A DNA stretch of 32,000 nucleotides from Thermofilum pendens Hrk 5 (GCF_000015225.1 NC_008698.1:930001-962000), one strand, 5' to 3'. Positions 1-17,042 are shown, counted from the first letter of the stretch. Program-made: numbers and translations. Notes: a model not told the origin generated them from the letters alone.

Positions 1-1
1 A

Positions 2-1495
2 GCATTATGTAAACAAATAAATTATGACAGTATTGTAACATCTACAGAGCCTGTACAGAAATTCATCCGAGAAACATTAGCGTTTAGAGGCATTGCTATG
101 ACATGGAACTGGGTAGAGGAGTTACCTGTAGCAGACGTTCTGGGTTCATATATAAGGTCGTTAAATTCCAGTGTTGGTAGCTTATCTTATCTTGTTTCTG
201 CTGTGTATGGTAGCCCTAGCAGGGTTAAGGTTTTGCTCGACGACGCTACAACTCTGGACATGCTTGTGGGCGAGAAGTTCGACCTGATAGTCACGGATCC
301 GCCTTACGCCGACGACGTGCCGTATACGGAGCTGAGCGACTTTTACTACGTGTGGCTCAAGAGAGCTTTAAGCGATGTCTCGGGCGGGAAGCTTATTCCC
401 AGATTTCTGCCGGAAGCCTTCTTTGACGAGTTCGGAGAGGAGATAAAGACTCAGTGGGAGACCTTTGCTACGAGAGAGGTCAGCGAGAATACTGAGCGTT
501 GGAAATACTTTAAGCTGAACATTTCCTTCAGTGAACTTCTGGCTAGGGCTTTTGCTAACGTTACAAGGTTCCTTGATGAAAAGGGTCTGCTGGTAACGTA
601 CTATGTTGCTAAGAAGCCGGAGGCTTGGGTAGCCTTGATAGATGCGCTCTGGCATATCAATGGTATGAGGGTTGTAGTTGCTTACCCCGTGGTTACGGAG
701 GCTGAAGAAAATGTGGTAGCAAGGGGAAGGGCGGCAGTGATGGGAGGCTATGTTATGGGATGGCGGAGGAGGGAGGTGGAGAAGCCCTTGGATCTCTCGA
801 GTGAGAAAGAGGCTGTTGTGACTACCGTCTCAGAGCGTCTAGGTAATTACTTAAAGGCCATAGATGTGAAGGAAGGTGCTACGGCGTGGGTTTATGCTTA
901 TCTTGCGGCTCTTAGCTATTTAACTTCTTTCTACCCCGTAAAGGATGGGGGCGTGGAGCTAGATGCTGAGGGTGTTGTTAGCCATGCGATGGCGTTGTCC
1001 TTTGAAGCTATGTTGAGGAAAGCTGGTGTAAACCTGCATGACCCGGCGGCGCTGGCATACCTTGCGCTGAGAGTTGTGGAGGATGAGAAGGGTAGGGTTG
1101 ACAGCGACGTGCTTTCTCGGGTGGCGTTAGGGCTTGGGATTAGAGACGTGGAGCTCGTTAAACTGGGGCTTGTCAGGGAGGTTCGGAGCGGAGGGCCTAA
1201 GGTGGCTAAGCGTAAGGTGTTCGAGGTTATGGCGCCCAGGAACGAGACGGTCGACGAGGTTAGGCGCGTGTTGTACCCGTTGCGGGGGAAAGCTCCTGTG
1301 CTGGAGTGTTTTAGGAATCTTCAGCTCTCGGTGCTAGCGAGAACCCAGGTATCCTGTGATCAGCGGGCTAGGGAGGAGGCGAAGGAGCTTGCAAAAGCTA
1401 TTGTAAGGCTTAGCGGGATGGGTCTTATTGACGAGGAGGATCCAGATGTTAGGCTTTCTAGGGCTGTGTTGGGTTTTGAGTGGTGGGAGCAATGA
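2..1495 (+). CDS. DUF1156-type N6-adenine DNA methyltransferase, C-terminal part (5' end runs off the window)
   Basis: Track ORF 98-1495. The same frame has no stop from nt 2 to the ATG at 98 (32 open codons in AT-rich sequence), so the gene probably starts upstream of the window. Motif IV 'LIVTDPPYADDVPYTELSDFYYVWLKR' (DPPY at nt 296-307) is the signature I associate with DUF1156/COG1743 methylases. No SAM-binding motif I is visible in-window, which fits truncation. Confidence 0.75.
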   Translation, partial: ALCKQINYDSIVTSTEPVQKFIRETLAFRGIAMTWNWVEELPVADVLGSYIRSLNSSVGSLSYLVSAVYGSPSRVKVLLDDATTLDMLVGEKFDLIVTDPPYADDVPYTELSDFYYVWLKRALSDVSGGKLIPRFLPEAFFDEFGEEIKTQWETFATREVSENTERWKYFKLNISFSELLARAFANVTRFLDEKGLLVTYYVAKKPEAWVALIDALWHINGMRVVVAYPVVTEAEENVVARGRAAVMGGYVMGWRRREVEKPLDLSSEKEAVVTTVSERLGNYLKAIDVKEGATAWVYAYLAALSYLTSFYPVKDGGVELDAEGVVSHAMALSFEAMLRKAGVNLHDPAALAYLALRVVEDEKGRVDSDVLSRVALGLGIRDVELVKLGLVREVRSGGPKVAKRKVFEVMAPRNETVDEVRRVLYPLRGKAPVLECFRNLQLSVLARTQVSCDQRAREEAKELAKAIVRLSGMGLIDEEDPDVRLSRAVLGFEWWEQ

Positions 1496-4400
1496 GTCTC
1501 GTGAATTTGCTTGCTGAGGGTAAGGTTAGCCCCGCGGTAGACATCTACGAGGTGTATAAGAGCCTCTTCAAGGGGGAAAAGCCTGAGAAGATCTACGAGC
1601 CTTACTGTGACCCCCGCTTGTTCTTCCAGCTGACGTTTGTGACGGACGGGTTTAAGCAGTACCTCGGCGATTTTCTCTCGAAGCTCGCGTCCGGAGAGTC
1701 TGAAGTGTACGTTATGCCGGCTCTTCTGGGGGCGGGTAAATCGCATTTCTTGGCTTTCGTACTGCATATACTCAGACTTTACAGGGATTGCAGGGGCGCT
1801 GGGGAGTGTGTCGAGAAAGCTTTGGAGGAGCTGGGAGTGAAGCTTAAAGTTCCCTCTCTCGAGAAGGTTCCCGAGGTTTTAGTGTTCCACGGGGAGCACA
1901 ACGTTGACCTTAAGCCGTTGGACTTTTCAAGCAAGGATACTCTTAAAGCCTCCTTGAAGCCCCCCGTGGTCTTGATATTCGACGAGACACAGCACTTCGA
2001 GGCAAAGATTCGTGACTTCCCGTTGCTCATGCAGATGCTCGCAGAGGCTGTCGAGGAGCGGAGGGGGGTCTTTCTCTTCGTGTCCTTCTCCCTATTCTCC
2101 GGTGAAAGACCGGATCTTGCGGCTCCCAAATCCTTGGATGCTGTGCGCCGTGTCCACTACGTGACCGTCTCGCTGGATGTAACGCGGAACATAGTCGAAG
2201 TATTCAGGAGGTGGGCAGGGCTTAGTGGCGCGAGAAGCGTGGAGCTAGCCGGGCTCAAGGGCATTGTAACCGATGAAAGGCTCAGGGAGTTTGAGAACAG
2301 GCTTCGAGGCTCCTACCCATTCAACCCGTACCTGCTGGATGCTGTTTTACAGCTTGCAGACGAGTCCCTAGTTGAGAAGACAAGGGTTCAGCTGACTAGA
2401 GGGCTTCTGAGGATACTGGCCTCTGCCTACGTTAACAGGAGAGGCGAATTAGTGATATTCGCAGATCTACCAGAGCCAAAAGAGGTAGTTATTGCCGGCG
2501 ATGTTTTTGCCGGGCAACTGAACGTCATCTTGAGGCTCTACGAGGACGACGCTAGGAAGGTTTCTGGAAGCATAGCTGCTCTTTCCGTGCTACGCCACAT
2601 TCTCCTTGCAACCTTCTTCGCCAGGCTTCTTCCACATCGTCGAATGTATCCAACCGAGGAGGAACTTATACTCGGTAGCTACGACCCGGCGAGGGTGAAG
2701 CCTCTTGACGTTAAGATGTTCCTCGAGGATGCCGCGAGGCAGGGCTTGCATATAGAGAAAGTCAACGGTCGCTACATGTACTGGTTCATCGGAGGCATAG
2801 AAGAGAAAGTCAGGGACGCCATGTACAGGTTCGGCGATGATGACGGACTTGAAGTGGCTACGGACGAGGTCGCAAGCCTTGCCAGGGAGAGGGCAGGACC
2901 TTTCTCGAGTGTAGTAATCGCGGGCGTCGGAGGTACTAAGGCTCTCGGCAAGGTTAAAGTCGTGTCGAGTAGGGACGAGTGGGAGAAAGAGCTAAAGGAT
3001 CAGGATAAGGCTATACTCGCTATAGACCTCCTTAACTTCGGAGTACCGGTTAAGCGGAATAATCTCATCGTTGTGAGAAGATACGATGAGGGAGAACCTC
3101 CGCAGACTACCTTAGAGCTGTTAAAAAGAGTAGGCGAGGGACCCAGAACTGTAAGGGAGGCTGTCGTGGATCTCGGACGCCTAGTAAAGGGGGTAGACGA
3201 GGTCTACGCGAACCTTATTGACTACTTCCCGGAACTTCTAGAGGAGGAGATGGAGGATATTCTTCGAAGGGAGTTGGAGCAACTTATTCGAGGAAGGCTT
3301 GAAAACCTGAAAAGCCGTGCAAAAGCGTACCTTAGGGAAAGCGTGGGGCTATGGTTGCGGCGTGGCGTTGTGGGCTTTAAAGACGTAGAGAAGCGCGGCT
3401 TCGACGAGTTGGTAGGAGAGCTTGTCAAAGATAAGAGAGACAGGCTTCGCGGAGTAGTCAAGGAGATATTCACGGGCGACCTTATAAACTGGGATAGCTT
3501 CAAGAAGGTTGGAGACCTTTGGAGCCTTTTCCTAAACAATGAATCATTCCCAGCGATTCCGGCGTCCTTCGAGGAGTTCCTAGAAGCACTGAGGGAGTAC
3601 TGCAAGGGTTGTAACTGTTTGTTCGAGGAGGATGGAGAGGTTAAGTGGCTCGGCGAGAATGGATGTGTCATGCCGGAGCTCGATAAAGACGTGGGTGTAG
3701 CGCCGTTCATGTACAAGAAGAGGGTTACAGAGTGGGCTGTCGAAGGTTTCTTGAAGCAATACGGGTCCTCGGCGAAAAGAAGGGTTTACATTGTGTATAG
3801 GAAGCCTAGCGGTCCGGAGGCTAGAGCGACCCCAGAGGAACTTTTGTCGAAGCAGAATGAATGGATTTACCTTGAGGGCGGGAGGCTTGAAATCGAAGAA
3901 GTCCAGAAAGGCATCTCGGTATCCGTGGATGGCGTGGAAACGGTGAGCGTGGAGAGGCCTAGAGGCGCCACAATACTGGTCGAGGTGGAGTCTTCCTATG
4001 ATTTGAAGAGCATCGAGTACACCTTGAATGGCGTGAAGAAAGTTTTCGACGTGAAGGGGAAGAGGCACGCCTTCAACGTGAAGGTTCCAGGAGAACCGGG
4101 TAGGTATGTTCTCAAAGTCAGAGCTGTTTTCGCCGACGATACCTTCGATGAGAGAGATGTGGCCATCATAGTGAGGGGGAAGTGTAAAAGAAAGATCACT
4201 GTCTTAAGCGTGAGCGTCGGAGAGGAAATAGTCGGGCTTAAAGCTGATACGGCTCAAGACGGGGAGATTCTTTTGAGGTACTTCAGGGATAGAGGGGTCC
4301 CGTTTAAGGCTACTGTATCCACTGAGTATAGCTATGGAGACGAGGAGATGATCGTTAACGTGAGGAAAAAGGTAAATAGTCCCGACGATGCAGACAAACT

Positions 4401-4551
4401 GCTCAAGATTCTTAAGGCAATTCAAGCGTTAACGCCTAACGCAGAGGTTACATTCGAGTTTATGGAGCCGCAGAAAGTGGACGAAGATATGGAGAAGAGG
4501 TTTAGGGGCCTTAAGGTTGTCTTTAGCGTAGAGCGGGAGGAGGAATGCTGA
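1492..4551 (+). CDS. large P-loop ATPase, DUF499/BrxC-like (~1019 aa)
   Basis: Track ORF 1480-4551 (GTG). The in-frame ATG at 1492 overlaps the methylase TGA as ATGA. Walker A 'PALLGAGKSHF' (GAGKS nt 1729-1743) and Walker B-like 'VVLIFDETQHF'. Size and position next to a DUF1156-type methylase fit the DUF499 family. Assignment rests on motif and context, not an HMM. Confidence 0.7.
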   Translation: MSLVNLLAEGKVSPAVDIYEVYKSLFKGEKPEKIYEPYCDPRLFFQLTFVTDGFKQYLGDFLSKLASGESEVYVMPALLGAGKSHFLAFVLHILRLYRDCRGAGECVEKALEELGVKLKVPSLEKVPEVLVFHGEHNVDLKPLDFSSKDTLKASLKPPVVLIFDETQHFEAKIRDFPLLMQMLAEAVEERRGVFLFVSFSLFSGERPDLAAPKSLDAVRRVHYVTVSLDVTRNIVEVFRRWAGLSGARSVELAGLKGIVTDERLREFENRLRGSYPFNPYLLDAVLQLADESLVEKTRVQLTRGLLRILASAYVNRRGELVIFADLPEPKEVVIAGDVFAGQLNVILRLYEDDARKVSGSIAALSVLRHILLATFFARLLPHRRMYPTEEELILGSYDPARVKPLDVKMFLEDAARQGLHIEKVNGRYMYWFIGGIEEKVRDAMYRFGDDDGLEVATDEVASLARERAGPFSSVVIAGVGGTKALGKVKVVSSRDEWEKELKDQDKAILAIDLLNFGVPVKRNNLIVVRRYDEGEPPQTTLELLKRVGEGPRTVREAVVDLGRLVKGVDEVYANLIDYFPELLEEEMEDILRRELEQLIRGRLENLKSRAKAYLRESVGLWLRRGVVGFKDVEKRGFDELVGELVKDKRDRLRGVVKEIFTGDLINWDSFKKVGDLWSLFLNNESFPAIPASFEEFLEALREYCKGCNCLFEEDGEVKWLGENGCVMPELDKDVGVAPFMYKKRVTEWAVEGFLKQYGSSAKRRVYIVYRKPSGPEARATPEELLSKQNEWIYLEGGRLEIEEVQKGISVSVDGVETVSVERPRGATILVEVESSYDLKSIEYTLNGVKKVFDVKGKRHAFNVKVPGEPGRYVLKVRAVFADDTFDERDVAIIVRGKCKRKITVLSVSVGEEIVGLKADTAQDGEILLRYFRDRGVPFKATVSTEYSYGDEEMIVNVRKKVNSPDDADKLLKILKAIQALTPNAEVTFEFMEPQKVDEDMEKRFRGLKVVFSVEREEEC

Positions 4552-4943
4552 TCCGAGCAATTAGAGGCGGGAGAGCTGTTAGGGTAAAGTGCGCAGAAGG
4601 TAGGTTCGAAGTTGGAGTGCCTTTCGAGGAGCTCTTCAGTTTTCTTGGCAGAATTTACCCCTGGGAGCTTGAAAGGCACATCGAGGTGGGAGATGGGGTG
4701 GCTGAGTTTAGGGAACGAATACCGTTTGAGAGGGCTCTCGCATACCTTTTGGCGCGTAGGGGCCGGCTTTCGCAGAAAGATGCCGAGCTAGTCGCCGCTG
4801 GTATTAGGCAACATGAGTTGTCGGCTATTGTGGACTCCTTTCTCTATAGGATGTGGCTCTGCAGGGTAGACGGTCGTAGCTGTAAGGAAGTGGTTGACGC
4901 TTTTTCCAAGATAGTTGCCGTGTACCGCAAGGTGCTCCCGTGA
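4545..4943 (+). CDS. small hypothetical protein (132 aa) between ATPase and helicase
   Basis: ATG 4545 overlaps the upstream stop (ATGCTGA, 4545-4551) and follows GGGAGGAGGA. Its TGA (4941-4943) overlaps the helicase start. No motif recognised. It sits where I recall DUF3780-like proteins in related operons (unverified). Confidence 0.6.
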   Translation: MLIRAIRGGRAVRVKCAEGRFEVGVPFEELFSFLGRIYPWELERHIEVGDGVAEFRERIPFERALAYLLARRGRLSQKDAELVAAGIRQHELSAIVDSFLYRMWLCRVDGRSCKEVVDAFSKIVAVYRKVLP

Positions 4944-7384
4944 TGGTATCCCTGATTGAGATACTGAGGTCTGCCGGCAAGGATCTCTACAAGCACCAGC
5001 TCGACTTTGTGTCTGATGCTCTGTGGTTTGACGAGCCCCGTATTCTCTTGGCTGACGACGTAGGGCTGGGTAAAACAATCCAGGCTCTCCTCTACATTAA
5101 GGCTCTCCTCGAGCTGGGGAGGGTGAACCATGTTCTAGTAATAGTGCCTCGTGCTGTCGTGGAGCAGTGGGCATCTGAGCTGGAGATGTTCGAGATACCA
5201 TTCTACATCGTGGAGTCGCCTGACTTCCCGCTGGGACACAGGGTCTACCTAGTCACCCTGGATAGAGCTAAGGTGGACAGCTACATGGAGGCTTTGGACA
5301 AGATAAACTGGGACTTGGTAGTTGTTGATGAGGCTCACAAGCTGAGGCTAGAGACGCTCAGGTCTAAGGTGGCTATTCTGTGTAGAAGGGCGAGGGGATG
5401 TCTTTTACTCACTGCTACTCCGCATACGGGCGACGAGAGTAGCTTCAAGTTCCTGATAGGACTCGCGAACAGCTATGTTGTACGGCGTGAAAAGAAGGAT
5501 GTGGAGGAGTATGAGGGGCGCAAGATATTCCCGTCTTTGGGGTACTGGATAGTGCAAGTGAAAGCAACGAAAGAGGAGAGTGACGCGCTTCATAAAGTGC
5601 TTAAATTCCTGGAAAACGATCAGATAGAGCAGATTGTGCGCGTAGTAGTGGAGAAGAGGGCGATGTCGAGCCCAACAGCGTTTTTCAAGACACTCGGAAA
5701 GGTTGTAGGAGGGTATTGCAGCGAAGAGTTACTGGAAGAGGGGGAGCTCGATGCCTGCATTGGTAACGTTGCCGGTGTAAAGAAGCTTGAGGAGCTCGCA
5801 AAGAAATATGCTAGCGCTGCCGACAGGAAGTTGGATGCTCTCGAAAAGTTGCTGAAGGATCACCTCAAGGGGAGAAAAGTACTTGTCTTCACAGAATATG
5901 CGACTACCGCCGAGTACCTATTTGAGAAGCTTGTTGAGAAGCTTGAGGGTTGTAAGATCGTAGATAGTGGGGAGGGCTACGCAAAGGCTGACTGTAGCGA
6001 GTTTGGAGTTATGTATGTTACAGCTAAGGCTAGGGACAGGATTGACGTAAGCAGGGAAGGCGCGCTCCTAGCGTCCGCGTATCCTACAGCTGTACTTATA
6101 TCCACGGACATAATGTCCGAGGGCGTAAACCTCCAGGCTTTCGATGTTGTTGTTAACTACGAGGTTGTATGGAGCCCGACAAAGCATGTGCAAAGGATAG
6201 GTAGAATCTGGAGGTTTGGACAGAAGGCAGAGAAAATACTAGTTATCGACATGGTTCTAAAGACTACTCTCTCGCAGGACGAATACAGCAACTATTTGAC
6301 TTTGTTGGAGAAATTGTACGAGATATCTCTCGCTGCCCTACCACCCCAGAGCTACGGCGAGTTCGAGATCTATGAGGTCGACCAAGAGCTCAGGAAGATA
6401 GTGGAGATAGGGTCTTCGGCTTATCTAGGAGAGGAGGAGGTCTACGAGGCTTTAAGGTCTGGTAGGCTGGAGGACCTGCGGAGCAGGATAAAGCGGATTC
6501 TCAAAGCTAAAGAGAACATGAGGTGGAAGAGCAGGAATGAGGTGGATGAGGGTTTACGCGTAAAGCTTGGCTACCCACCGGAGAAGAAGCCGGAGCCCGG
6601 GGGAGGATACTATGTTGCCAACGTTACTTTTGAGCGTAACGGAGTGAAGCTTTACTCCGAGCGTATACTCCTAAGGTTGCCAACACCGCTGAGTAGAAGT
6701 AGGTCGGTACAGGAGGGGGTCTTCAGAGAGCTGGAAGTTCCCTGGGATGCAGTAGTAGAGGATACTGGGTCGCTCAAGGAAGACGAGAGAGAGGAGGTTA
6801 ATCGTATGGTGTGGATCGAGGTATGGCATCCACTGCAGCAGTACCTTTCAAGAAACAACCTTCCCGAAGGTGGTATTAACGTAGAAGTAAAACGTGCAAG
6901 GGTAGAGTCTATAGGGGTTGCAGAGCTAATACCCGTTACCTTGAGCTTCGAGGAGCTTGTCGAGAGAGAAGTGAGGTACAGTAGGAACAGGGAGCGCACA
7001 GAAAGGGCTGCTGCTAGATGCATCAGGAGTTTACTCGAAAATCTGGGCTATACAATTGTGGAGGAATATGCGAGTATTCCTCGACCCTTCGACATGGTGG
7101 TGAAAAAGGACGGCATTCTTTACACGGTGGAAGTCAAAGGTAAATGGGTTGGGAAGCGTGATGAACCGTTATCCTTCACTGCGAATGAGATTGACTGGGC
7201 TTCGAGGTTCCCAGATAGGCACATTGTGTGCATAGCATACGTGGACAGAGATTACTGTGAAGACGTGGAGTGCTACTACTTCAATGAATTTCAGAAGAAA
7301 TGGGTTCTGGAAACTGTGAGAGGAATAGAGTACAAGTATAACGCTAGGAAAAAAAAGGGAGCCGACAAAACCGAACCTCAATAG
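4943..7384 (+). CDS. SNF2-family helicase with C-terminal PD-(D/E)xK (DUF3883-like) nuclease domain
   Basis: Motif I 'DDVGLGKTIQAL' (GLGKT nt 5063-5077), motif II 'VVVDEAHKL' (DEAH nt 5327-5338), 'LLLTATPHTGDE', 'ISTDIMSEGVNLQ', 'VQRIGRIWRFGQ'. C-terminus: 'PFDMVVKKDGILYTVEVKGK...LSFTANEIDWA' (D nt 7091-7093, EVK nt 7130-7138). Start is ATG 4943 (TGATG overlap) or GTG 4940. Confidence 0.85.
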   Translation: MVSLIEILRSAGKDLYKHQLDFVSDALWFDEPRILLADDVGLGKTIQALLYIKALLELGRVNHVLVIVPRAVVEQWASELEMFEIPFYIVESPDFPLGHRVYLVTLDRAKVDSYMEALDKINWDLVVVDEAHKLRLETLRSKVAILCRRARGCLLLTATPHTGDESSFKFLIGLANSYVVRREKKDVEEYEGRKIFPSLGYWIVQVKATKEESDALHKVLKFLENDQIEQIVRVVVEKRAMSSPTAFFKTLGKVVGGYCSEELLEEGELDACIGNVAGVKKLEELAKKYASAADRKLDALEKLLKDHLKGRKVLVFTEYATTAEYLFEKLVEKLEGCKIVDSGEGYAKADCSEFGVMYVTAKARDRIDVSREGALLASAYPTAVLISTDIMSEGVNLQAFDVVVNYEVVWSPTKHVQRIGRIWRFGQKAEKILVIDMVLKTTLSQDEYSNYLTLLEKLYEISLAALPPQSYGEFEIYEVDQELRKIVEIGSSAYLGEEEVYEALRSGRLEDLRSRIKRILKAKENMRWKSRNEVDEGLRVKLGYPPEKKPEPGGGYYVANVTFERNGVKLYSERILLRLPTPLSRSRSVQEGVFRELEVPWDAVVEDTGSLKEDEREEVNRMVWIEVWHPLQQYLSRNNLPEGGINVEVKRARVESIGVAELIPVTLSFEELVEREVRYSRNRERTERAAARCIRSLLENLGYTIVEEYASIPRPFDMVVKKDGILYTVEVKGKWVGKRDEPLSFTANEIDWASRFPDRHIVCIAYVDRDYCEDVECYYFNEFQKKWVLETVRGIEYKYNARKKKGADKTEPQ

Positions 7385-7443
7385 CTGGGAGGAAAAGGAG
7401 AGTATCGAAGAATTCATGCTTTCTTGTCTCAATGGAGCTGACG

Positions 7444-7450
7444 TATAATA
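7444..7450 (+). promoter_or_regulatory. TATA-like box (TATAATA) upstream of M48 protease gene
   Basis: A/T box 19-25 nt upstream of the GTG at 7469, spacing compatible with a leaderless archaeal transcript. Confidence 0.3.
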
Positions 7451-7468
7451 GAACCTAATTCATTTTCG

Positions 7469-8407
7469 GTGTACTCATCGAGGGTTTTTTATGGGACTAC
7501 ACCTTGGGTAATGTTGAGCATGGAGATGCTTGTGCTCGCAACGTCTGTGATGATGGTGTTTGCGACTACCTTTGCATATTTCGCGGCGATGCATGGAGGG
7601 TTTAAGCGCCTTGAGCATGTCTTAGTGTTTCGTATCCTTATTGTGTTGGGGCTTGTTGCGGCGTTACTTGTTTTCGTGCCTCACATGGTGTGGTACTGTG
7701 CGTTGGAAGCTTCCCGTATGCCAGTTGCCGCCGCTATAATCGCTCTTGTGTACTTCTCCTCTTCTCCTCTGATGGAGATTATAAGGCTACGCCGCGCGAA
7801 GAAGTTGGAGAAGCGGTATGTTGAGATCGGAGGGCGTGGTTACGAGTACTGGGTTGTGGATTCTGATGTGCTGAACGCATGCCGAAAGGGCAGGGAGATC
7901 TGTGTCACAAGGAAGCTTGCAGAAGTGTTCGAAGTTGACGAGCTGAAAGTCGTCCTCCTTCATGAGGAGGGGCATGATGGCATATTCGATAAGGTCGTGG
8001 TTGTAGGGAGGATTATTCTCCTTTCTTCTCTAATTATTCTTATCACGGATGCTTTTATGCTGGACGCGGAGATGTTTTTCTCTTCCCTCTCTGCGTACTT
8101 ATTGGCCATTCCTGCTGCTACCCTTGCTAGCTGGGTCAACGAGCATGTAGCTGATCTTAACGCGGCAAAGATGTTCCCTCCTGAGCTAGTTGTGAGAACC
8201 TTTGTGAAGTTTTGGGCATGCGCCGTATTACGCGATTTGTGCACCAGGGAGGTTGTGAATGTGGTTGTCTTTAAGAACATTCAGGAACCTACGTTCCGAA
8301 AAGTTTTGTGGGAGGTGGCTAGATCGATGTTGGATAGTTTGAGGGGAAATCTCTCTATACACCCTCCACCGAGGTTCAGAATATACGCTGTTCTTGTACG
8401 TACATGA
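7469..8407 (+). CDS. integral-membrane zinc metalloprotease, M48 (HtpX/Ste24-like) family
   Basis: Several hydrophobic segments. 'LKVVLLHEEGHD' holds the HExxH motif (nt 7961-7975). Downstream 'NEHVADLNAAK' matches the E-x-x-A-D third-ligand motif of M48 peptidases. GTG start at 7469; alternative ATG at 7511. Confidence 0.7.
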   Translation: MYSSRVFYGTTPWVMLSMEMLVLATSVMMVFATTFAYFAAMHGGFKRLEHVLVFRILIVLGLVAALLVFVPHMVWYCALEASRMPVAAAIIALVYFSSSPLMEIIRLRRAKKLEKRYVEIGGRGYEYWVVDSDVLNACRKGREICVTRKLAEVFEVDELKVVLLHEEGHDGIFDKVVVVGRIILLSSLIILITDAFMLDAEMFFSSLSAYLLAIPAATLASWVNEHVADLNAAKMFPPELVVRTFVKFWACAVLRDLCTREVVNVVVFKNIQEPTFRKVLWEVARSMLDSLRGNLSIHPPPRFRIYAVLVRT

Positions 8408-8796: not shown

Positions 8797-8823
8797 TGTT
8801 TTGAGTTTTAATTTTTGAGGCTG

Positions 8824-9723
8824 ATGAAGGCGGTTACTTTCCTCAGCGTGAAGGGTGGCGTTGGGAAGACTACGCTCGCTGTTAACACCGCGGCTATGCT
8901 TGCCGATAGAGTTGGGGGTAGCGAGAAGGTTCTCGTCGTGGACTTGGATGCCCAGGCGAGCGCCACCGTGTATATTCTTGGGCATAAAAAGCAGAGAGGC
9001 TTTGAGGAAAGCAACCACACGGTCTACGGGTTGCTGAGTGGGGGTGTAGAGGCGCGTGACTGTGTGGTTAACGTCTCTGAGCATACGGATAAGTGGAGTT
9101 CTAGGCTTTACCTTGTCCCGGGGGACTCGAGGGTCACTGAGCTTGAGAGGAGGATAGTTGCGGAGAGTGCGGCGGGGGGTTACGGTTGGCTGTATATCGT
9201 TAGAAGGGCTCTCGAGAAGCTATCCGGGGAGGGCTTCAGCTATGTTTTCATAGATCCTCCGGCTACGCTGGGTGTTCTTTCTGAGGCGGCGCTTGCGGCT
9301 TCGAGGTACTTTATACTCCCCATAGTTCCCGACGACTTTGGTCGTACGTCGTTCAGGCTCTTCGCGAGCAGCTTCTTCAGCGGAGTTGCTATGAAGATCA
9401 GGACTGAGCTGGGCACGTTGCCTCTCTGTGGAGGCATAGTCTTCAATAAAGTGAAGTCAAATACTGCTATGGAGAAAATAGCCAATAGTATAGTGGAGGA
9501 GGTGCACAAGAGTAAGTTGTACGGCAAGTACCCGATTCCTTTGTATAAGACAAGGTTACATGAATATATAGCCTATACAAAATCTCTTGAAGAGCATGTC
9601 CCGTTGTGGAATATTAAAGAAAAGAAAAAACATGAGAATGCTATAAAAGAGTTCGAAGAATACTTCGATGAGTTCTACGAGTACGTTGTAAGGGATAAAG
9701 CGGCAGCAGGCGGGCAGGTTTGA
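8824..9723 (+). CDS. ParA/MinD-family P-loop ATPase (module 1)
   Basis: Deviant Walker A 'SVKGGVGKTTLAVN' (nt 8851-8874), 'VLVVDLDAQASAT', 'YVFIDPPATLG'. Track ORF starts at TTG 8815; the in-frame ATG at 8824 is more plausible. Confidence 0.8.
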   Translation: MKAVTFLSVKGGVGKTTLAVNTAAMLADRVGGSEKVLVVDLDAQASATVYILGHKKQRGFEESNHTVYGLLSGGVEARDCVVNVSEHTDKWSSRLYLVPGDSRVTELERRIVAESAAGGYGWLYIVRRALEKLSGEGFSYVFIDPPATLGVLSEAALAASRYFILPIVPDDFGRTSFRLFASSFFSGVAMKIRTELGTLPLCGGIVFNKVKSNTAMEKIANSIVEEVHKSKLYGKYPIPLYKTRLHEYIAYTKSLEEHVPLWNIKEKKKHENAIKEFEEYFDEFYEYVVRDKAAAGGQV

Positions 9724-10163
9724 GAGATTTCGCGAATGAAGGCGAGGTTTACCGTTTTCTCAGGTGGAAGCTTAGGGAACTTTGGGGGGCGAGGGTTGAG
9801 GAGCGCTATGGCCTTGGTAGGTTGTCGCCGGACGTGGATCTTCTCGTCGTGGCTGGTGGCGGGGTTTTCGGGCTGGAGGTGAAGTACTTTCAGGATAGGC
9901 CTCTTAGGGCTTACGAGGGGCTGGGGGAGGCGCTTGCGCTTTTGCTTTACTGTTTCGATGGGGTTTACTTGGTTCACGTGTTTGATTCTTCGCTTCGCGG
10001 GGTTTACGGAGAGGTTGTGGAGAGGGCTCTTAGGCTTGTGGATTTGACGCCTTTGGGCTACGTCGTCGTGGTGGGCCGCGGCGATCCCGAGGTGTTGCGT
10101 GTGCCTCGGGGTAACCCGTTCAAGCTTAGGGGTGAGTGCGAGGCGGTGGGACAGGACGCGTAG
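9720..10163 (+). CDS. small PD-(D/E)xK-fold (Hjc-like) protein, partner of ParA-like ATPase
   Basis: TTG start overlaps the ParA stop (TTGA). 'SPDVDLLVVAGGGVFGLEVKY' gives a D...E-x-K core (EVK nt 9876-9884) after an N-terminal helix bearing Glu. Followed by 'YEGLGEALAL', shared with the 128-aa protein at 20294-20680. The fold call is inferred from motif spacing only. Confidence 0.55.
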   Translation: MRDFANEGEVYRFLRWKLRELWGARVEERYGLGRLSPDVDLLVVAGGGVFGLEVKYFQDRPLRAYEGLGEALALLLYCFDGVYLVHVFDSSLRGVYGEVVERALRLVDLTPLGYVVVVGRGDPEVLRVPRGNPFKLRGECEAVGQDA

Positions 10164-10253: not shown

Positions 10254-11264
10254 CTAGGTGTTCGTGTATACTTCTATTCCGAGTTGTTTTGCGGCTTTTA
10301 GTGCTTCTTCTTCTATGAAGGGTGTTACGAGGACTAGTCTTGGCTTTGTGCCGGTTTTCTTCTCGTATAGGCGTCCGAGCCTCCAGAGCTTTGCTATGTC
10401 TCCGCTGGAGGCGCTGGGTTTTACTTCGATGAGTACGTGTACCTTGTCTTTTATCAGTATGTCTGCTTCGACCCTGGAGGGGTATCCGAGGACTTCGCCG
10501 TCTTCGTCGTAGTAGACCCACCTGAGGACTTCGCCTGCGCCTAGTATTTCCTCGACGACTCCCCTCATGGCTTCTCTGAAAGCGGCTTCCGACTCGATGC
10601 CCCACCTGGCGCCCAGCGCTATGAGGCGTCTCTCGAAGGAGTCCATCTTTCTCGCGAGGATCCCTTGCTCCTCTCTGAGAGACTTCACTTCTTTCCACAG
10701 CTTTCCTTGCTCTTCTCTCAGCGCCTTAACCTCTTCCCATAGTTTCTCCTGTCCCTCTCTAAGAGCTTTCACTTCCTCCCACAGCTTTTCCTGGTTCTCC
10801 CTCAGAGCTTTTACCTCCTCCCACAGCTTCCTTACCTCTTCCCAGAGCTTCTCCTGTCCCTCTCTCAGTGCCTTGACCTCCTCCCAGAGCCTCTGCTGGC
10901 CTTCCCACAACTTCCCCTGGTCCTCTCTCAGCGCTCTAACCTCCTCCCATAGCTTTTCCTGGTTTTCTCTGAGAGCCTTAACTTCCTCCCACAGCCTCCT
11001 CTGATCCTCTCTCAGCGCCTTAACTTCTTCCCATAGCTTTCCCTGCCCCTCTCTGAGGGACTTCACTTCTTCCCACAGTTTTTCCTGGTTTCTCCACAGT
11101 TGCTCCTGTCCCTCCCTCAGCGCCCTTATCTCGTTCAGCGTTGCGTCCATCTTCTCGAGCAAATCCCTGAATCCCAGCAAACCGGCTAAAGCGTACCTAA
11201 GCTCCCTATCCTCCTCCAAAGCCTTAACCAACCGCTCCCACTCCCCCCTACCCAGCGCCGCCAC
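10254..11264 (-). CDS. coiled-coil repeat protein with C-terminal PD-(D/E)xK domain (DUF3782-like architecture)
   Basis: 336-aa ORF, GTG start. The middle ~160 aa are heptad-based 'LWEEVKALREGQEK' repeats. C-terminus 'RVEADILIKDKVHVLIEVKPS' has the D...E-x-K motif (EVK nt 10419-10427). This architecture recalls archaeal proteins often mis-annotated as chordopoxvirus fusion protein. Confidence 0.7.
   Translation of the reverse strand: MAALGRGEWERLVKALEEDRELRYALAGLLGFRDLLEKMDATLNEIRALREGQEQLWRNQEKLWEEVKSLREGQGKLWEEVKALREDQRRLWEEVKALRENQEKLWEEVRALREDQGKLWEGQQRLWEEVKALREGQEKLWEEVRKLWEEVKALRENQEKLWEEVKALREGQEKLWEEVKALREEQGKLWKEVKSLREEQGILARKMDSFERRLIALGARWGIESEAAFREAMRGVVEEILGAGEVLRWVYYDEDGEVLGYPSRVEADILIKDKVHVLIEVKPSASSGDIAKLWRLGRLYEKKTGTKPRLVLVTPFIEEEALKAAKQLGIEVYTNT
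10659..11132 (-). repeat. in-frame tandem 42-bp (14-aa) repeat array
   Basis: Nine full 14-aa units (LWEEVK[A/S]LRE[GDNE]Q[EGR][KR]), three 7-aa half units (LWRNQEK, LWEGQQR, LWEEVRK) and a degenerate first unit. Visible in the DNA as reiterated ctcttcccanagctt...ctctctcagngcctt. Confidence 0.85.
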
Positions 11265-11712: not shown

Positions 11713-12048
11713 TTAGCCTACCTTGATCATCGCTTTGCCGGCCCACCTCGCTAGCTCCTCTCTGCTCGCTACGTGTATCTCTACGGGCGCGTCTACTGGG
11801 AGCGAGTACTTCTCGACTGCCCTGTCGACTATGTCCGCCGGGAGGTACTTCCTGTCCTCGTTGCCCGCCTTCTCCAGCACTACGAGGATGTCTATGTCGC
11901 TAAGCACGGTGGCCCTGCCCTCGGCGACGCTCCCGACAACGTATACCTCGGCGTCCGGCCTCAGGTCCTTAGCCGCCTTGGCGACGGCCTCGGCGTACTC
12001 GCGCCACCTCCTCAAGTGCGCGAAGTGGTACTTAACCCAGCTTGACAT
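11713..12048 (-). CDS. minimal nucleotidyltransferase (MNT), HEPN-partner type
   Basis: 'VYVVGSVAEGRATVLSDIDILVV' carries the GS...DxD pol-beta NTase motif. ATG 12048 overlaps the upstream HEPN gene by 17 nt (track start 12063). Confidence 0.8.
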   Translation of the reverse strand: MSSWVKYHFAHLRRWREYAEAVAKAAKDLRPDAEVYVVGSVAEGRATVLSDIDILVVLEKAGNEDRKYLPADIVDRAVEKYSLPVDAPVEIHVASREELARWAGKAMIKVG

Positions 12049-12448
12049 TCTCGGCGACCTCATCGAGTAGCTTGATCAAGTCTTTAACGGTGGCCGCGAG
12101 CCTTTCGACGTCCTTCGCCGAGTACTCGGCTTCGCCGTACCTGCTAGCGGTGTACGCTTCTTCGAGCAGTACGAGCTCCCTCCTCCTGCCGTCGACGAAG
12201 CCCAGGATCCTCCCCGCGGCCTCGCCGAAGCCGTAGGACTCGAGCTCCCTGGCGAGGAGCCCCAGTAGCTCCCTCACTCCGTGCCCGCGAGTCTCCCTGC
12301 CTACGAGCTCGAGTAGCGTAGCCTTCACGTAGAGCTGGGCCGCCTGCTCCAGGAAGAACGCCGCGAGATCCGCGTTCTTTGCGCTTAGGGCTTCGTCGAG
12401 GAAGTCCAGCGCTCTTCTCTTAAGCCTGGCTACGAGCTCTCCGCTCAT
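12032..12448 (-). CDS. HEPN domain protein
   Basis: 138 aa, all-helical character. 'RETRGH' fits the Rx4-6H HEPN motif. Directly upstream of and overlapping an MNT gene. TATA-like 'ttattctatagcc' (minus strand) ~25 nt upstream. Confidence 0.75.
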   Translation of the reverse strand: MSGELVARLKRRALDFLDEALSAKNADLAAFFLEQAAQLYVKATLLELVGRETRGHGVRELLGLLARELESYGFGEAAGRILGFVDGRRRELVLLEEAYTASRYGEAEYSAKDVERLAATVKDLIKLLDEVAENVKLG

Positions 12449-16162: not shown

Positions 16163-16618
16163 ATGTTGCTGGAGGGTGTTAAGAGCAGGCTTTCCTCTCT
16201 GAGAGATCCCTGCGTAAAAGCTGTGCTCGTGTTTGGGTCTGTGGCTAGGGGTGAGCAGGGCGAGAGGAGCGACTTGGACTTGCTTGTCCTCCACGAGGGG
16301 TGCGCTATCGAAGACCCCGTCGCTAGGAGGAGGTATTTCTACGCCCTTCTGAGGGAGGCTGTGGGAGACCTCTTCGAGGATCTGACGGTGCTGGACATGG
16401 AGCTTAAGCGCTTCCTGGAGCCCGGGGAGGTTTCGCCTCTCCTCCTGAACGTGTACTGGGACGCCGTCGTGGTCTACGACGCTACGGGGCTCGTCGAGGG
16501 CTTCCTGAGGCGCGCGAGGGAGGGGATTGTGAGGAGTGGGTTGAGGAGGGTTAAGGACGGAAAGGCTTACCGCTGGATCCTCCCAAAGCCGGCGGGGGTG
16601 GTCAGGGTACTTGATTAA
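16163..16618 (+). CDS. minimal nucleotidyltransferase (MNT)
   Basis: 'AVLVFGSVARGEQGERSDLDLLVL' carries GS...DxD. TATA-like box 28-34 nt upstream of the ATG. Overlaps the downstream HEPN gene by 8 nt. Confidence 0.8.
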   Translation: MLLEGVKSRLSSLRDPCVKAVLVFGSVARGEQGERSDLDLLVLHEGCAIEDPVARRRYFYALLREAVGDLFEDLTVLDMELKRFLEPGEVSPLLLNVYWDAVVVYDATGLVEGFLRRAREGIVRSGLRRVKDGKAYRWILPKPAGVVRVLD

Positions 16619-17042
16619 CCCTGTAAGCGAGGTCAGGTATAGGTACAGGTTGGCGGTCGAGCACTTGGAGAGGGCGGAGAGGCTTTTCTCGCTCGGGGAC
16701 TGGGCAGGCGTCGTGGCGTACTCGCAGCTCGCTGTGGAGAACTTCGCTAAAGCCGTGGTAGCGGTGTTCGAGGTTCCAACGTGGAGCTACGACCCATCGA
16801 ACCAGCTGAGATCACTGCTCGACGCTGTCCCCCTGGAGGCGCGAAGGGAGGCCGAGGAGCTGGCAAACATAGCCCGGGACCTAGCCCCGGAGCACGGTAG
16901 AACTTCTTACGGGGAGCCTAGCGCGGGGCTCGTGCCCAGCGATATCTACAAGCGGGAGCACGCTGTCGAAGCGCTGGAGAAGGGGAGGAGGGCCAGGGAG
17001 CTTGCCGGAAAAGTGCTCGGCGCGATGGGCATCGCCCCTTAA
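16611..17042 (+). CDS. HEPN domain protein
   Basis: 143 aa, helical. 'RDLAPEH' fits Rx4-6H. TTG start overlaps the MNT stop. Gene order is reversed relative to the 11713-12448 pair. Confidence 0.7.
   Translation: MINPVSEVRYRYRLAVEHLERAERLFSLGDWAGVVAYSQLAVENFAKAVVAVFEVPTWSYDPSNQLRSLLDAVPLEARREAEELANIARDLAPEHGRTSYGEPSAGLVPSDIYKREHAVEALEKGRRARELAGKVLGAMGIAP

Follow-up and report, generated by a model that had tools for sequence, protein, structure and literature searches.

A stretch of 32,000 nucleotides (nt) from Thermofilum pendens Hrk 5 (GCF_000015225.1, NC_008698.1:930001-962000; called the window hereafter) begins with four overlapping genes, which encode a methylase, an ATPase, a small protein of 132 amino acids (aa) and a putative helicase-nuclease. 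It is probable, in our assessment, that these four genes form one operon, and that this operon represents a Thermoproteota lineage of the Hma, or Type-1 DUF499-centred BREX-related (BR), systems (BREX, bacteriophage exclusion), working as a defence module similar to restriction-modification (R-M). Hma is the name given to operons of a helicase, a methylase and an ATPase, of which 1638 were counted across 26 phyla (Payne et al. 2021, PMC8565338), and a preliminary description of this DNA was right to use that label. The loci were then renamed DUF499-centred BR by Rakesh and Krishnan (2026, PMC12839542), who distinguish three types in 3592 taxa, 408 of them archaeal, and an R-M-like model was put forward for the Type-1 BR systems, with 203 archaeal taxa listed. 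The preliminary description knew of no mechanistic or archaeal characterisation, and on this point the literature corrects it: HmaA was put to an experimental test in 2024 (PMC11232893), and the survey of 2026 covers archaeal occurrences (PMC12839542). The locus, from a hot-spring archaeon, is a divergent, compact form of a kind of system already described, and its new parts are an apparently TUDOR-less helicase and a fourth gene.

The four open reading frames (ORFs) lie on the + strand at 2..1495 (truncated by the window start), 1492..4551, 4545..4943 and 4943..7384, in the order methylase, ATPase, small gene, helicase. They overlap at each junction, within ATGA (1492-1495, methylase/ATPase), ATGCTGA (4545-4551, ATPase/small gene) and TGATG (4941-4945, small gene/helicase), exactly as the preliminary description had it. 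The ATPase and helicase ORFs start with ATG, and GTG alternatives are present at 1480 and 4940, respectively; gene callers placed both starts at the ATGs (1492 and 4943) in two other sequences. The first is a 7.7-kb contig (L001), 100% identical over 5884 nt, which was obtained by exact-protein look-up of the 132-aa product and was also the source of the complete methylase. The second is a T. pendens chromosome (CM138769.1, GCA_054696865.1), which encodes a near-identical small-gene product (P0001). For the small gene, the start at 4545 (132 aa) is better supported than the shorter NCBI call (108 aa), because the 24 N-terminal residues that it adds are conserved across orthologues, with M1, L2, R4, G8, V12, V14, E18, G19 and F21-G24 invariant. 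The 108-aa call is probably too short.

Overlaps are also present in orthologous loci (4, 1 and 16 nt in L003, 7 and 4 nt in L005, 1 and 16 nt in L012). They support a single operon, with possible translational coupling. The preliminary description went further and deduced from them that the products are probably made stoichiometrically; this does not follow from the overlaps. Start/stop overlaps are common between co-directional genes of this genome, and within the same window are found for example at 9720-9723 and 16611-16618, so that they argue for an operon, and not for equal or fixed stoichiometry. The operon is followed by an intergenic gap of 135 nt (7385..7519, + strand). Containing oligo-T at 7463-7466 and at 7485-7490, this gap is a candidate stop for archaeal transcription; the next gene runs from 7520.

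The first gene (1..1495, + strand) encodes the C-terminal half, residues 505-1001 of 1001 aa, of a DUF1156-type N6-adenine methyltransferase resembling HmaB. Its catalytic motif IV, DPPY, is located at nt 296-307 (residue 603 of the full protein). The fragment encoded in the window had no Pfam match. Compared with PADLOC models, it matched MTase_II PDLC03352 (1.4e-62), HmaB (1.8e-19) and, weakly, PglXI (E 0.0028), and in NCBIfam it matched DUF1156_antiphage at 1.2e-17, under the cut-off of that family. Completing the methylase from outside the window, a check proposed in the preliminary description, gave the 1001-aa protein of L001, and bore out the claim of a DUF1156-type methylase: DUF1156 (PF06634) is found at residues 14-61, with 40.6 bits vs a cut-off of 24, the S-adenosylmethionine (AdoMet) motif I, DPFAGFG, at 103, and, at 226-324 within the insert, a Zn-ribbon (CPVC...CLYC). 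The published description of BR and Type-3 BREX methylases likewise has a long insert separating motif I from motif IV (PMC12839542).

The second gene (1492..4551, + strand) encodes a DUF499/BrxC-like AAA+ ATPase of 1019 aa resembling HmaC, recognised by Pfam, by profile alignment and by its predicted fold. Walker A (GAGKS, nt 1729-1743) and Walker B (IFDE, nt 1975-1986) are both present. The Pfam DUF499 match (5.4e-6) reached 24.9 bits vs a cut-off of 23. A profile of 25 sequences (A3) was aligned by hhalign to the HEPN-DUF499 protein of a Thermus plasmid with 96.4% probability (E 1.2e-9, 466 columns), and to the Type-2 DUF499 protein of Deinococcus with 71.6%; by this measure the ATPase is closer to the Type-1 protein than to the Type-2 one. 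No sequence relative was found in the PDB. The AlphaFold2 (AF2) model, with a predicted local distance difference test (pLDDT) score of 86.4, had Acinetobacter BrxC (9zll_D, E 1.4e-6) as its best match when the PDB was searched by Foldseek, with ORC/Cdc6 next. These results agree with the DUF499 assignment first made from the sequence alone. Conservation of the ATPase is highest at the N-terminus (0.76) and lowest at the C-terminus (~0.52-0.56), and the C-terminal part, made of a beta-sandwich and RRM-like domains, is more variable. It has no HEPN fusion.

The fourth gene (4943..7384, + strand) encodes the 813-aa protein resembling HmaA, in which a SNF2 helicase is followed by a predicted C-terminal PD-(D/E)XK (NOV_C) nuclease, as indicated by Pfam, PADLOC and hhalign. 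The helicase motifs are GLGKT (motif I, 5063-5077), DEAH (5327-5338), TATP (5411-5422) and QRIGRIWRFGQ (motif VI, 6191-6223), and the nuclease residues are E687, D717 in PFDM (nt 7085-7096), and E730 and K732 in VEVKG (nt 7127-7141). All these motifs and the four nuclease residues are invariant in 7 orthologues. In Pfam, SNF2-rel_dom (7.6e-18), Helicase_C (1.3e-16) and NOV_C, equivalent to DUF3883 (8.8e-5, 22.9 bits vs a cut-off of 22.1), were all found, and the PADLOC matches were DrmD (8.8e-49), HmaA (1.6e-45) and the BrxHI/BrxHII models (4.1e-41). With the helicase from an Hma-type locus of Thermus, hhalign gave an alignment of 100% probability (E 9.8e-44). The description of a SNF2 helicase-nuclease made beforehand is upheld by these matches, and the motifs that it listed (DPPY, GAGKS plus DE, the SNF2 set and a D...EVK nuclease) could each be placed at the coordinates given above.

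With the three larger proteins identified, the locus was compared to known systems. With Hma and Type-1 BR it shares a DUF1156 N6-methyltransferase with an internal recognition insert, a DUF499/BrxC-like AAA+ ATPase ending in an RRM-like domain, a SNF2 helicase carrying what appears to be an active-type PD-(D/E)XK (NOV_C) nuclease at its C-terminus, the absence of PglZ and a patchy distribution. It differs from them by the lack of a HEPN fusion on the ATPase and by the overlap of all four genes. Several further observations weigh against our assignment. First, in sequence the proteins resemble the bacterial models only slightly (ATPase E ~1e-6): the HmaC match of the ATPase in PADLOC (1.2e-6) is aligned over only ~60 residues, its NCBIfam DUF499_antiphage score is 20 bits vs a cut-off of 1200, and the NCBIfam equivalog cut-offs were all missed. 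As the curated cut-offs are missed, automated tools might not call the locus. Second, a 132-aa gene is intercalated between the ATPase and helicase genes. Third, the helicase is short, some 300 aa shorter than its counterparts (813 aa, 804-838 aa in the clade, vs 1122 aa in Thermus and 1176 positions in the HmaA model). Its residue 18 aligns with Thermus residue 105, and all 7 clade helicases begin at the same point. Since only 17 residues precede the helicase core, too few to hold a TUDOR domain, the protein is predicted to be devoid of this N-terminal domain, which is described for Type-1 and Type-3 BR helicases. Fourth, the bacterial HmaA acted alone and with an abortive-infection-like phenotype, and HmaB overexpression was without detectable effect on T4 sensitivity (PMC11232893), a point to which we return below.

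The features that set the locus apart from Type-1 are in part those of Type-2 BR, which consists of DUF499, DUF3780, DUF1156 and a PLD/HKD-helicase, and to which the NCBIfam 'anti-phage-associated' families NF042962-4 correspond. Shared with Type-2 are a small alpha+beta protein that stands alone and whose gene comes right after that of the DUF499 ATPase (as in the Deinococcus plasmid locus L016), a TUDOR-less helicase, and a beta-sandwich ahead of the C-terminal RRM of the ATPase. However, the predicted effector domain here is a C-terminal PD-(D/E)XK and not an N-terminal HKD/PLD, the small protein has no detectable similarity to DUF3780, and no standalone DUF3780 is encoded in the locus. No PLD domain was found by Pfam in the window helicase, and the PADLOC PLD_Helicase and NCBIfam phospholipD_antiphage models match its helicase core only (residues 226-462).

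Type 3 BREX (BrxC, PglXI, BrxHII, PglZ, BrxA, BrxF) has in common with the locus the BrxC-like ATPase fold and the matches to the PglXI and BrxHI/BrxHII models, but here PglZ, BrxA and BrxB/BrxF are missing and the nuclease is fused to the helicase. No PglZ, BrxA or BrxB-type protein was found among the called genes of the window or of the upstream flank. DISARM (defence island system associated with restriction-modification; DrmD and DrmMI with DrmA/B/C) comes in because the best single PADLOC/NCBIfam score of the helicase is that for DrmD. Yet this score is under the curated cut-off (NCBIfam DrmD, 1.6e-51, 175.7 bits, far below 610 bits), DrmD has no fused NOV_C nuclease (PMC11232893), and the locus has no DrmA, DrmB (DUF1998) or DrmC gene; no DrmA- or DrmB-like gene was seen among the domain annotations of the called genes at the locus. 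Finally, type I R-M differs by its HsdS and HsdM, both absent here, and the locus is also set apart, from a type III Mod-Res pair as well, by its additional 1019-aa AAA+ ATPase. The best type I match of the helicase was EcoAI R, with 27.8 bits vs a cut-off of 550. It had been proposed from the start that the locus was neither BREX nor type I/III R-M, and we agree: no PglZ, HsdS or separate restriction enzyme is encoded in the window or in the 5 kb upstream.

How might such a module work? The methylase, with its ~470-aa target-recognition insert and Zn-ribbon between motif I and DPPY, would mark host DNA by N6-methyladenine (m6A) at a specific site. The DUF499/BrxC-like ATPase would assemble or license the complex on DNA, and its variable C-terminal beta-sandwich and RRM-like domains may help to recognise invaders, as suggested by its fold and by the published model. 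The SNF2 motor would then translocate on DNA, and its fused PD-(D/E)XK nuclease would nick or cut unmodified foreign DNA. The small protein might be an accessory associated with the ATPase, taking the place held by DUF3780 in Type-2 BR; we propose this with low confidence. We infer, for this locus as well as for the whole family, that self and non-self would be discriminated by methylation, and we rate this dependence on modification lower than the assignment of the system.

The effector step rests on the bacterial homologue HmaA, the sole case shown experimentally. In E. coli, the Halomonas HmaA alone reduces T4 by ~100-fold, an effect for which both motif VI of the helicase and the NOV_C nickase are needed (PMC11232893). 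In the same study, overexpression of HmaB left T4 sensitivity unchanged, and ~15-20% of the hmaA loci were found without hmaB or hmaC. These data favour another explanation, in which the effector is essentially the helicase-nuclease by itself, working by abortive infection or DNA nicking and triggered by some feature of infection instead of by missing methylation, while the methylase and the ATPase are regulatory or dispensable. Self and non-self would then not truly be told apart by modification. We consider this the main competitor of the R-M-like module, but an unlikely one for the present clade. In every complete locus seen, the three core genes are found together, co-oriented and overlapping, with a single exception (L011, where the helicase gene is inverted), and the catalytic motifs of the methylase, of the ATPase and of the helicase-nuclease are all conserved. 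Moreover, self-protection is the simplest reason for keeping a nuclease beside a methylase whose recognition insert is large.

The ATPase family comprises 55 clusters, of which all organism-named ones are from Thermoproteota and the remainder metagenomic; a second homologue search with the ATPase profile did not reach further than the first. The named carriers are Thermofilum, Pyrobaculum oguniense TE7, Pyrobaculum sp. 3827-6, Vulcanisaeta thermophila, and metagenome-assembled genomes of Acidilobus and Pyrobaculum. The order methylase, ATPase, small gene, helicase is found in loci from Thermofilum, Pyrobaculum, Thermoproteus and related metagenome contigs. In three-gene sister loci from Vulcanisaeta thermophila and from an Acidilobus-like contig (L009 and L010), no small gene is present within 10 kb. 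Many Pyrobaculum genomes have been sequenced, but only a few are among the hits, and the flanking genes differ in each genome examined. The GC content of the cassette (~0.48-0.54) is below that of the window between 12 and 32 kb (0.60-0.68). Such a patchy, non-syntenic spread is what one would expect if the cassette is a mobile defence module, and the universal synteny that the preliminary description had named as the sign of a housekeeping function was not observed.

The last point bears on the idea that the operon is a housekeeping module, for chromatin remodelling, repair or DNA methylation. SNF2 ATPases and ORC/Cdc6-like AAA+ proteins are also known in housekeeping roles, and among proteins of solved structure, RapA and eukaryotic remodellers come closest to the helicase. 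Nevertheless, we regard a housekeeping role as highly improbable, given that the few named genomes are scattered over Thermoproteota with flanks that all differ and a GC content under that of the neighbouring DNA, that the active site of the fused nuclease looks intact, and that a bacterial homologue defends against phage (PMC11232893).

Outside cellular genomes, the ATPase profile retrieved nothing in IMG/VR, comparison of the helicase to phages gave generic SNF2 helicases only, and the region downstream of the cassette had no blastn match in PLSDB. On the upstream side, 3.3 kb from the cassette, the C-terminus of FeoB (L008:1-618) was compared to the GTDB species representatives. The best match, from Ca. 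Terraquivivens, was 70% identical, and no Thermofilum locus was returned by this search. Looking up the exact protein of a flanking gene brought back the same T. pendens assembly (GCA_054696865.1) and no other. The strain-specific region may extend well beyond the cassette, or the species may not be represented.

We now turn to the 132-aa protein (4545..4943, + strand), an alpha+beta protein of an unannotated family, whose gene overlaps the ATPase stop with its start and the helicase start with its stop. This family is very small, with 5 clusters among 5.8 billion proteins, and a profile search of 1.84 billion representatives yielded 18 hits. Apart from one tandem duplicate (P0069), the hits that are significant come from standalone proteins of 108-174 aa; the matches of three long proteins to the profile were short, partial and weak (E 1e-6 to 2e-4). 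P0069 has 398 aa, and carries the small-protein domain in tandem behind a low-complexity N-terminal extension rich in Lys, Ala and Glu. In Pfam (searched up to E<=10) nothing was found under E 0.08, and in PADLOC there were two single-member Cas8b matches alone (E 0.0032 and 0.0095), which we judged to be chance. The window protein had no match in PHROGs, where one family member matched weakly, at E 0.0033. The AF2 model (pLDDT 78.9, predicted template modelling score 0.78) has five short strands and five to six helices; Foldseek gave no match for it at E<=0.001 in the PDB and BFVD, and no helix-turn-helix (HTH) or other DNA-binding fold was recognised in the Foldseek and Pfam searches.

Two identities were considered for this protein and rejected. 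The first is DUF3780, for which the preliminary description had proposed a check: no likeness was found, as hhalign to a genuine DUF3780 gave 0.1% probability, and the Pfam search mentioned above was empty at this level. The second is the N-terminal TUDOR domain of the helicase, detached into an ORF of its own. The small-protein profile did not match the N-terminus of any long helicase. We rejected this split-gene idea because the sister cassettes are devoid of both the small gene and the TUDOR domain, and because the family is made of standalone proteins and one tandem duplicate.

The small gene holds the same cassette position in L003-L007, L012, L047 and L011, and encodes there a protein of 124-151 aa. 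In L011, a distant locus, it overlaps the ATPase stop even though the helicase gene is inverted, which means that its link with the ATPase gene is tighter than that with the helicase gene. Divergent homologues were also found on contigs that have no Hma/BR genes. P0066 (E 1.4e-20; L045:6344-6775 and L046:8001-8432) is surrounded by many small unannotated ORFs and a Dam-like methylase, and in L045 also by a tyrosine integrase fragment and two PHROG-matching proteins; a search of IMG/VR with P0066 returned nothing. P0071 (E 1.8e-10; L048:7985-8446 and L049:7302-7763) has a dCTP deaminase/dUTPase gene on one side and a ribonucleotide reductase gene on the other, and is encoded near a ribbon-helix-helix regulator and a DUF5906-type primase-helicase-like protein. 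The presence of these homologues in virus- or element-like contigs means that the small-protein family is shared between defence cassettes and such DNA. This sharing could be read in two ways: either the small protein is a recruited regulator, or the viral copies are decoys.

Our working view, which we hold with low confidence, is that the small protein is a lineage-specific accessory, likely an adaptor, reader or regulator that partners the ATPase. It may instead not be a defence subunit at all, and be a regulator derived from a mobile element, such as a controller timing the expression of the effector, or a selfish insert. The homologues outside cassettes, with P0066 in a virus-like contig and P0071 next to dUTPase and ribonucleotide reductase genes, go in this direction, as do the Vulcanisaeta- and Acidilobus-type sister cassettes that do without the small gene. 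In type II R-M systems, the gene for the C-protein is placed just upstream of the nuclease gene, and the position of the small gene, ahead of the nuclease gene, is similar. Yet the lack of a recognised HTH or DNA-binding fold, and the overlap of its start with the ATPase stop, seen in all cassettes that carry the small gene, L011 included, and suggesting co-production with the ATPase, make a regulator or an insert rather less likely to us than an accessory. A bolder proposal is that the protein defines a new family of accessory subunits of DUF499-type ATPases, shared with viruses and mobile elements, in which the cassette copy would be a reader or adaptor replacing TUDOR, analogous in function to DUF3780 though unrelated to it in sequence, and P0066 and P0071 would be decoys or inhibitors titrating the ATPase. 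We give this full scenario little credence at present. If the decoy reading were true, it would reveal an archaeal anti-defence strategy against BREX-related systems.

The surroundings of the operon in T. pendens contain genes of toxin-antitoxin and defence type, which count in favour of our assignment: PIN and DUF6036 genes, two minimal nucleotidyltransferase (MNT)-HEPN pairs, a gene for a PDDEXK_10 protein with a match to C3a181, and a small gene with a D...EVK motif that comes after a ParA-like one. The first gene past the operon (7520..8407, + strand, starting 135 nt downstream) encodes an M48-type zinc metalloprotease with several transmembrane segments and a HEEGH motif. We considered it as a fifth component, and discarded it in view of the 135-nt gap, of its nature (a membrane-embedded HExxH protease) and of its lack of conservation beside other cassettes; it is probably unrelated to the cassette. 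An M48 family metallopeptidase gene is also found near the Thermus Hma-type plasmid locus L014. Further on, a ParA/MinD-like ATPase (8815..9723, + strand; AAA_31 2.3e-24, and a weak PADLOC PDC-M28B match) overlaps by 4 nt a gene for a 147-aa protein without Pfam match (9720..10163, + strand). The latter contains DVDLLVV...GLEVKY, a D...EVK motif that suggests a PD-(D/E)XK nuclease, and the two genes may form a separate two-gene module in the low-GC stretch. On the other strand (10254..11264, -), a 336-aa protein combines a DUF3782 coiled-coil with PDDEXK_10, and matches the PADLOC model C3a181 ('Diadenylate cyclase') at 6.6e-38; its coiled-coil is encoded by a degenerate tandem repeat of 42 nt (14 aa), in ~10 copies, at 10661..11087. 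Two overlapping NTP_transf_2 (MNT)/HEPN pairs, at 11713..12448 (- strand) and 16163..17042 (+ strand), flank housekeeping-looking iron-sulfur and MinD-like genes. Pairs of this sort are toxin-antitoxin-type modules, common in thermophilic archaea.

Two observations were made in the other genomes. In P. oguniense TE7, the methylase (L012:6773-9749) is called as an 894-aa protein and an overlapping ORF of 111 aa, which suggests a frameshift in this copy, due either to a pseudogene or to a sequencing error. A 1036-aa DEAD/Helicase_C protein is encoded after the cassette in L012, L003 and L004.

As the type of system has already been named, catalogued and partly tested, the locus opens no new category. 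Its value lies elsewhere. It documents a compact Thermoproteota form of Hma/BR, whose ATPase is weakly matched by current models, so that pipelines may miss such loci. If the helicase-nuclease does lack a TUDOR domain, as its sequence indicates, it bears on what the minimal effector is. A thermostable version of the system, with four proteins, might also suit structural work. Lastly, the locus exposes a tiny unannotated family, encoded between the ATPase and the effector and present as well in virus-like contigs. Knowing the role of this small protein would help to understand the coupling between ATPases of the DUF499/BrxC type and their effectors, which is a general question for BREX-like systems.

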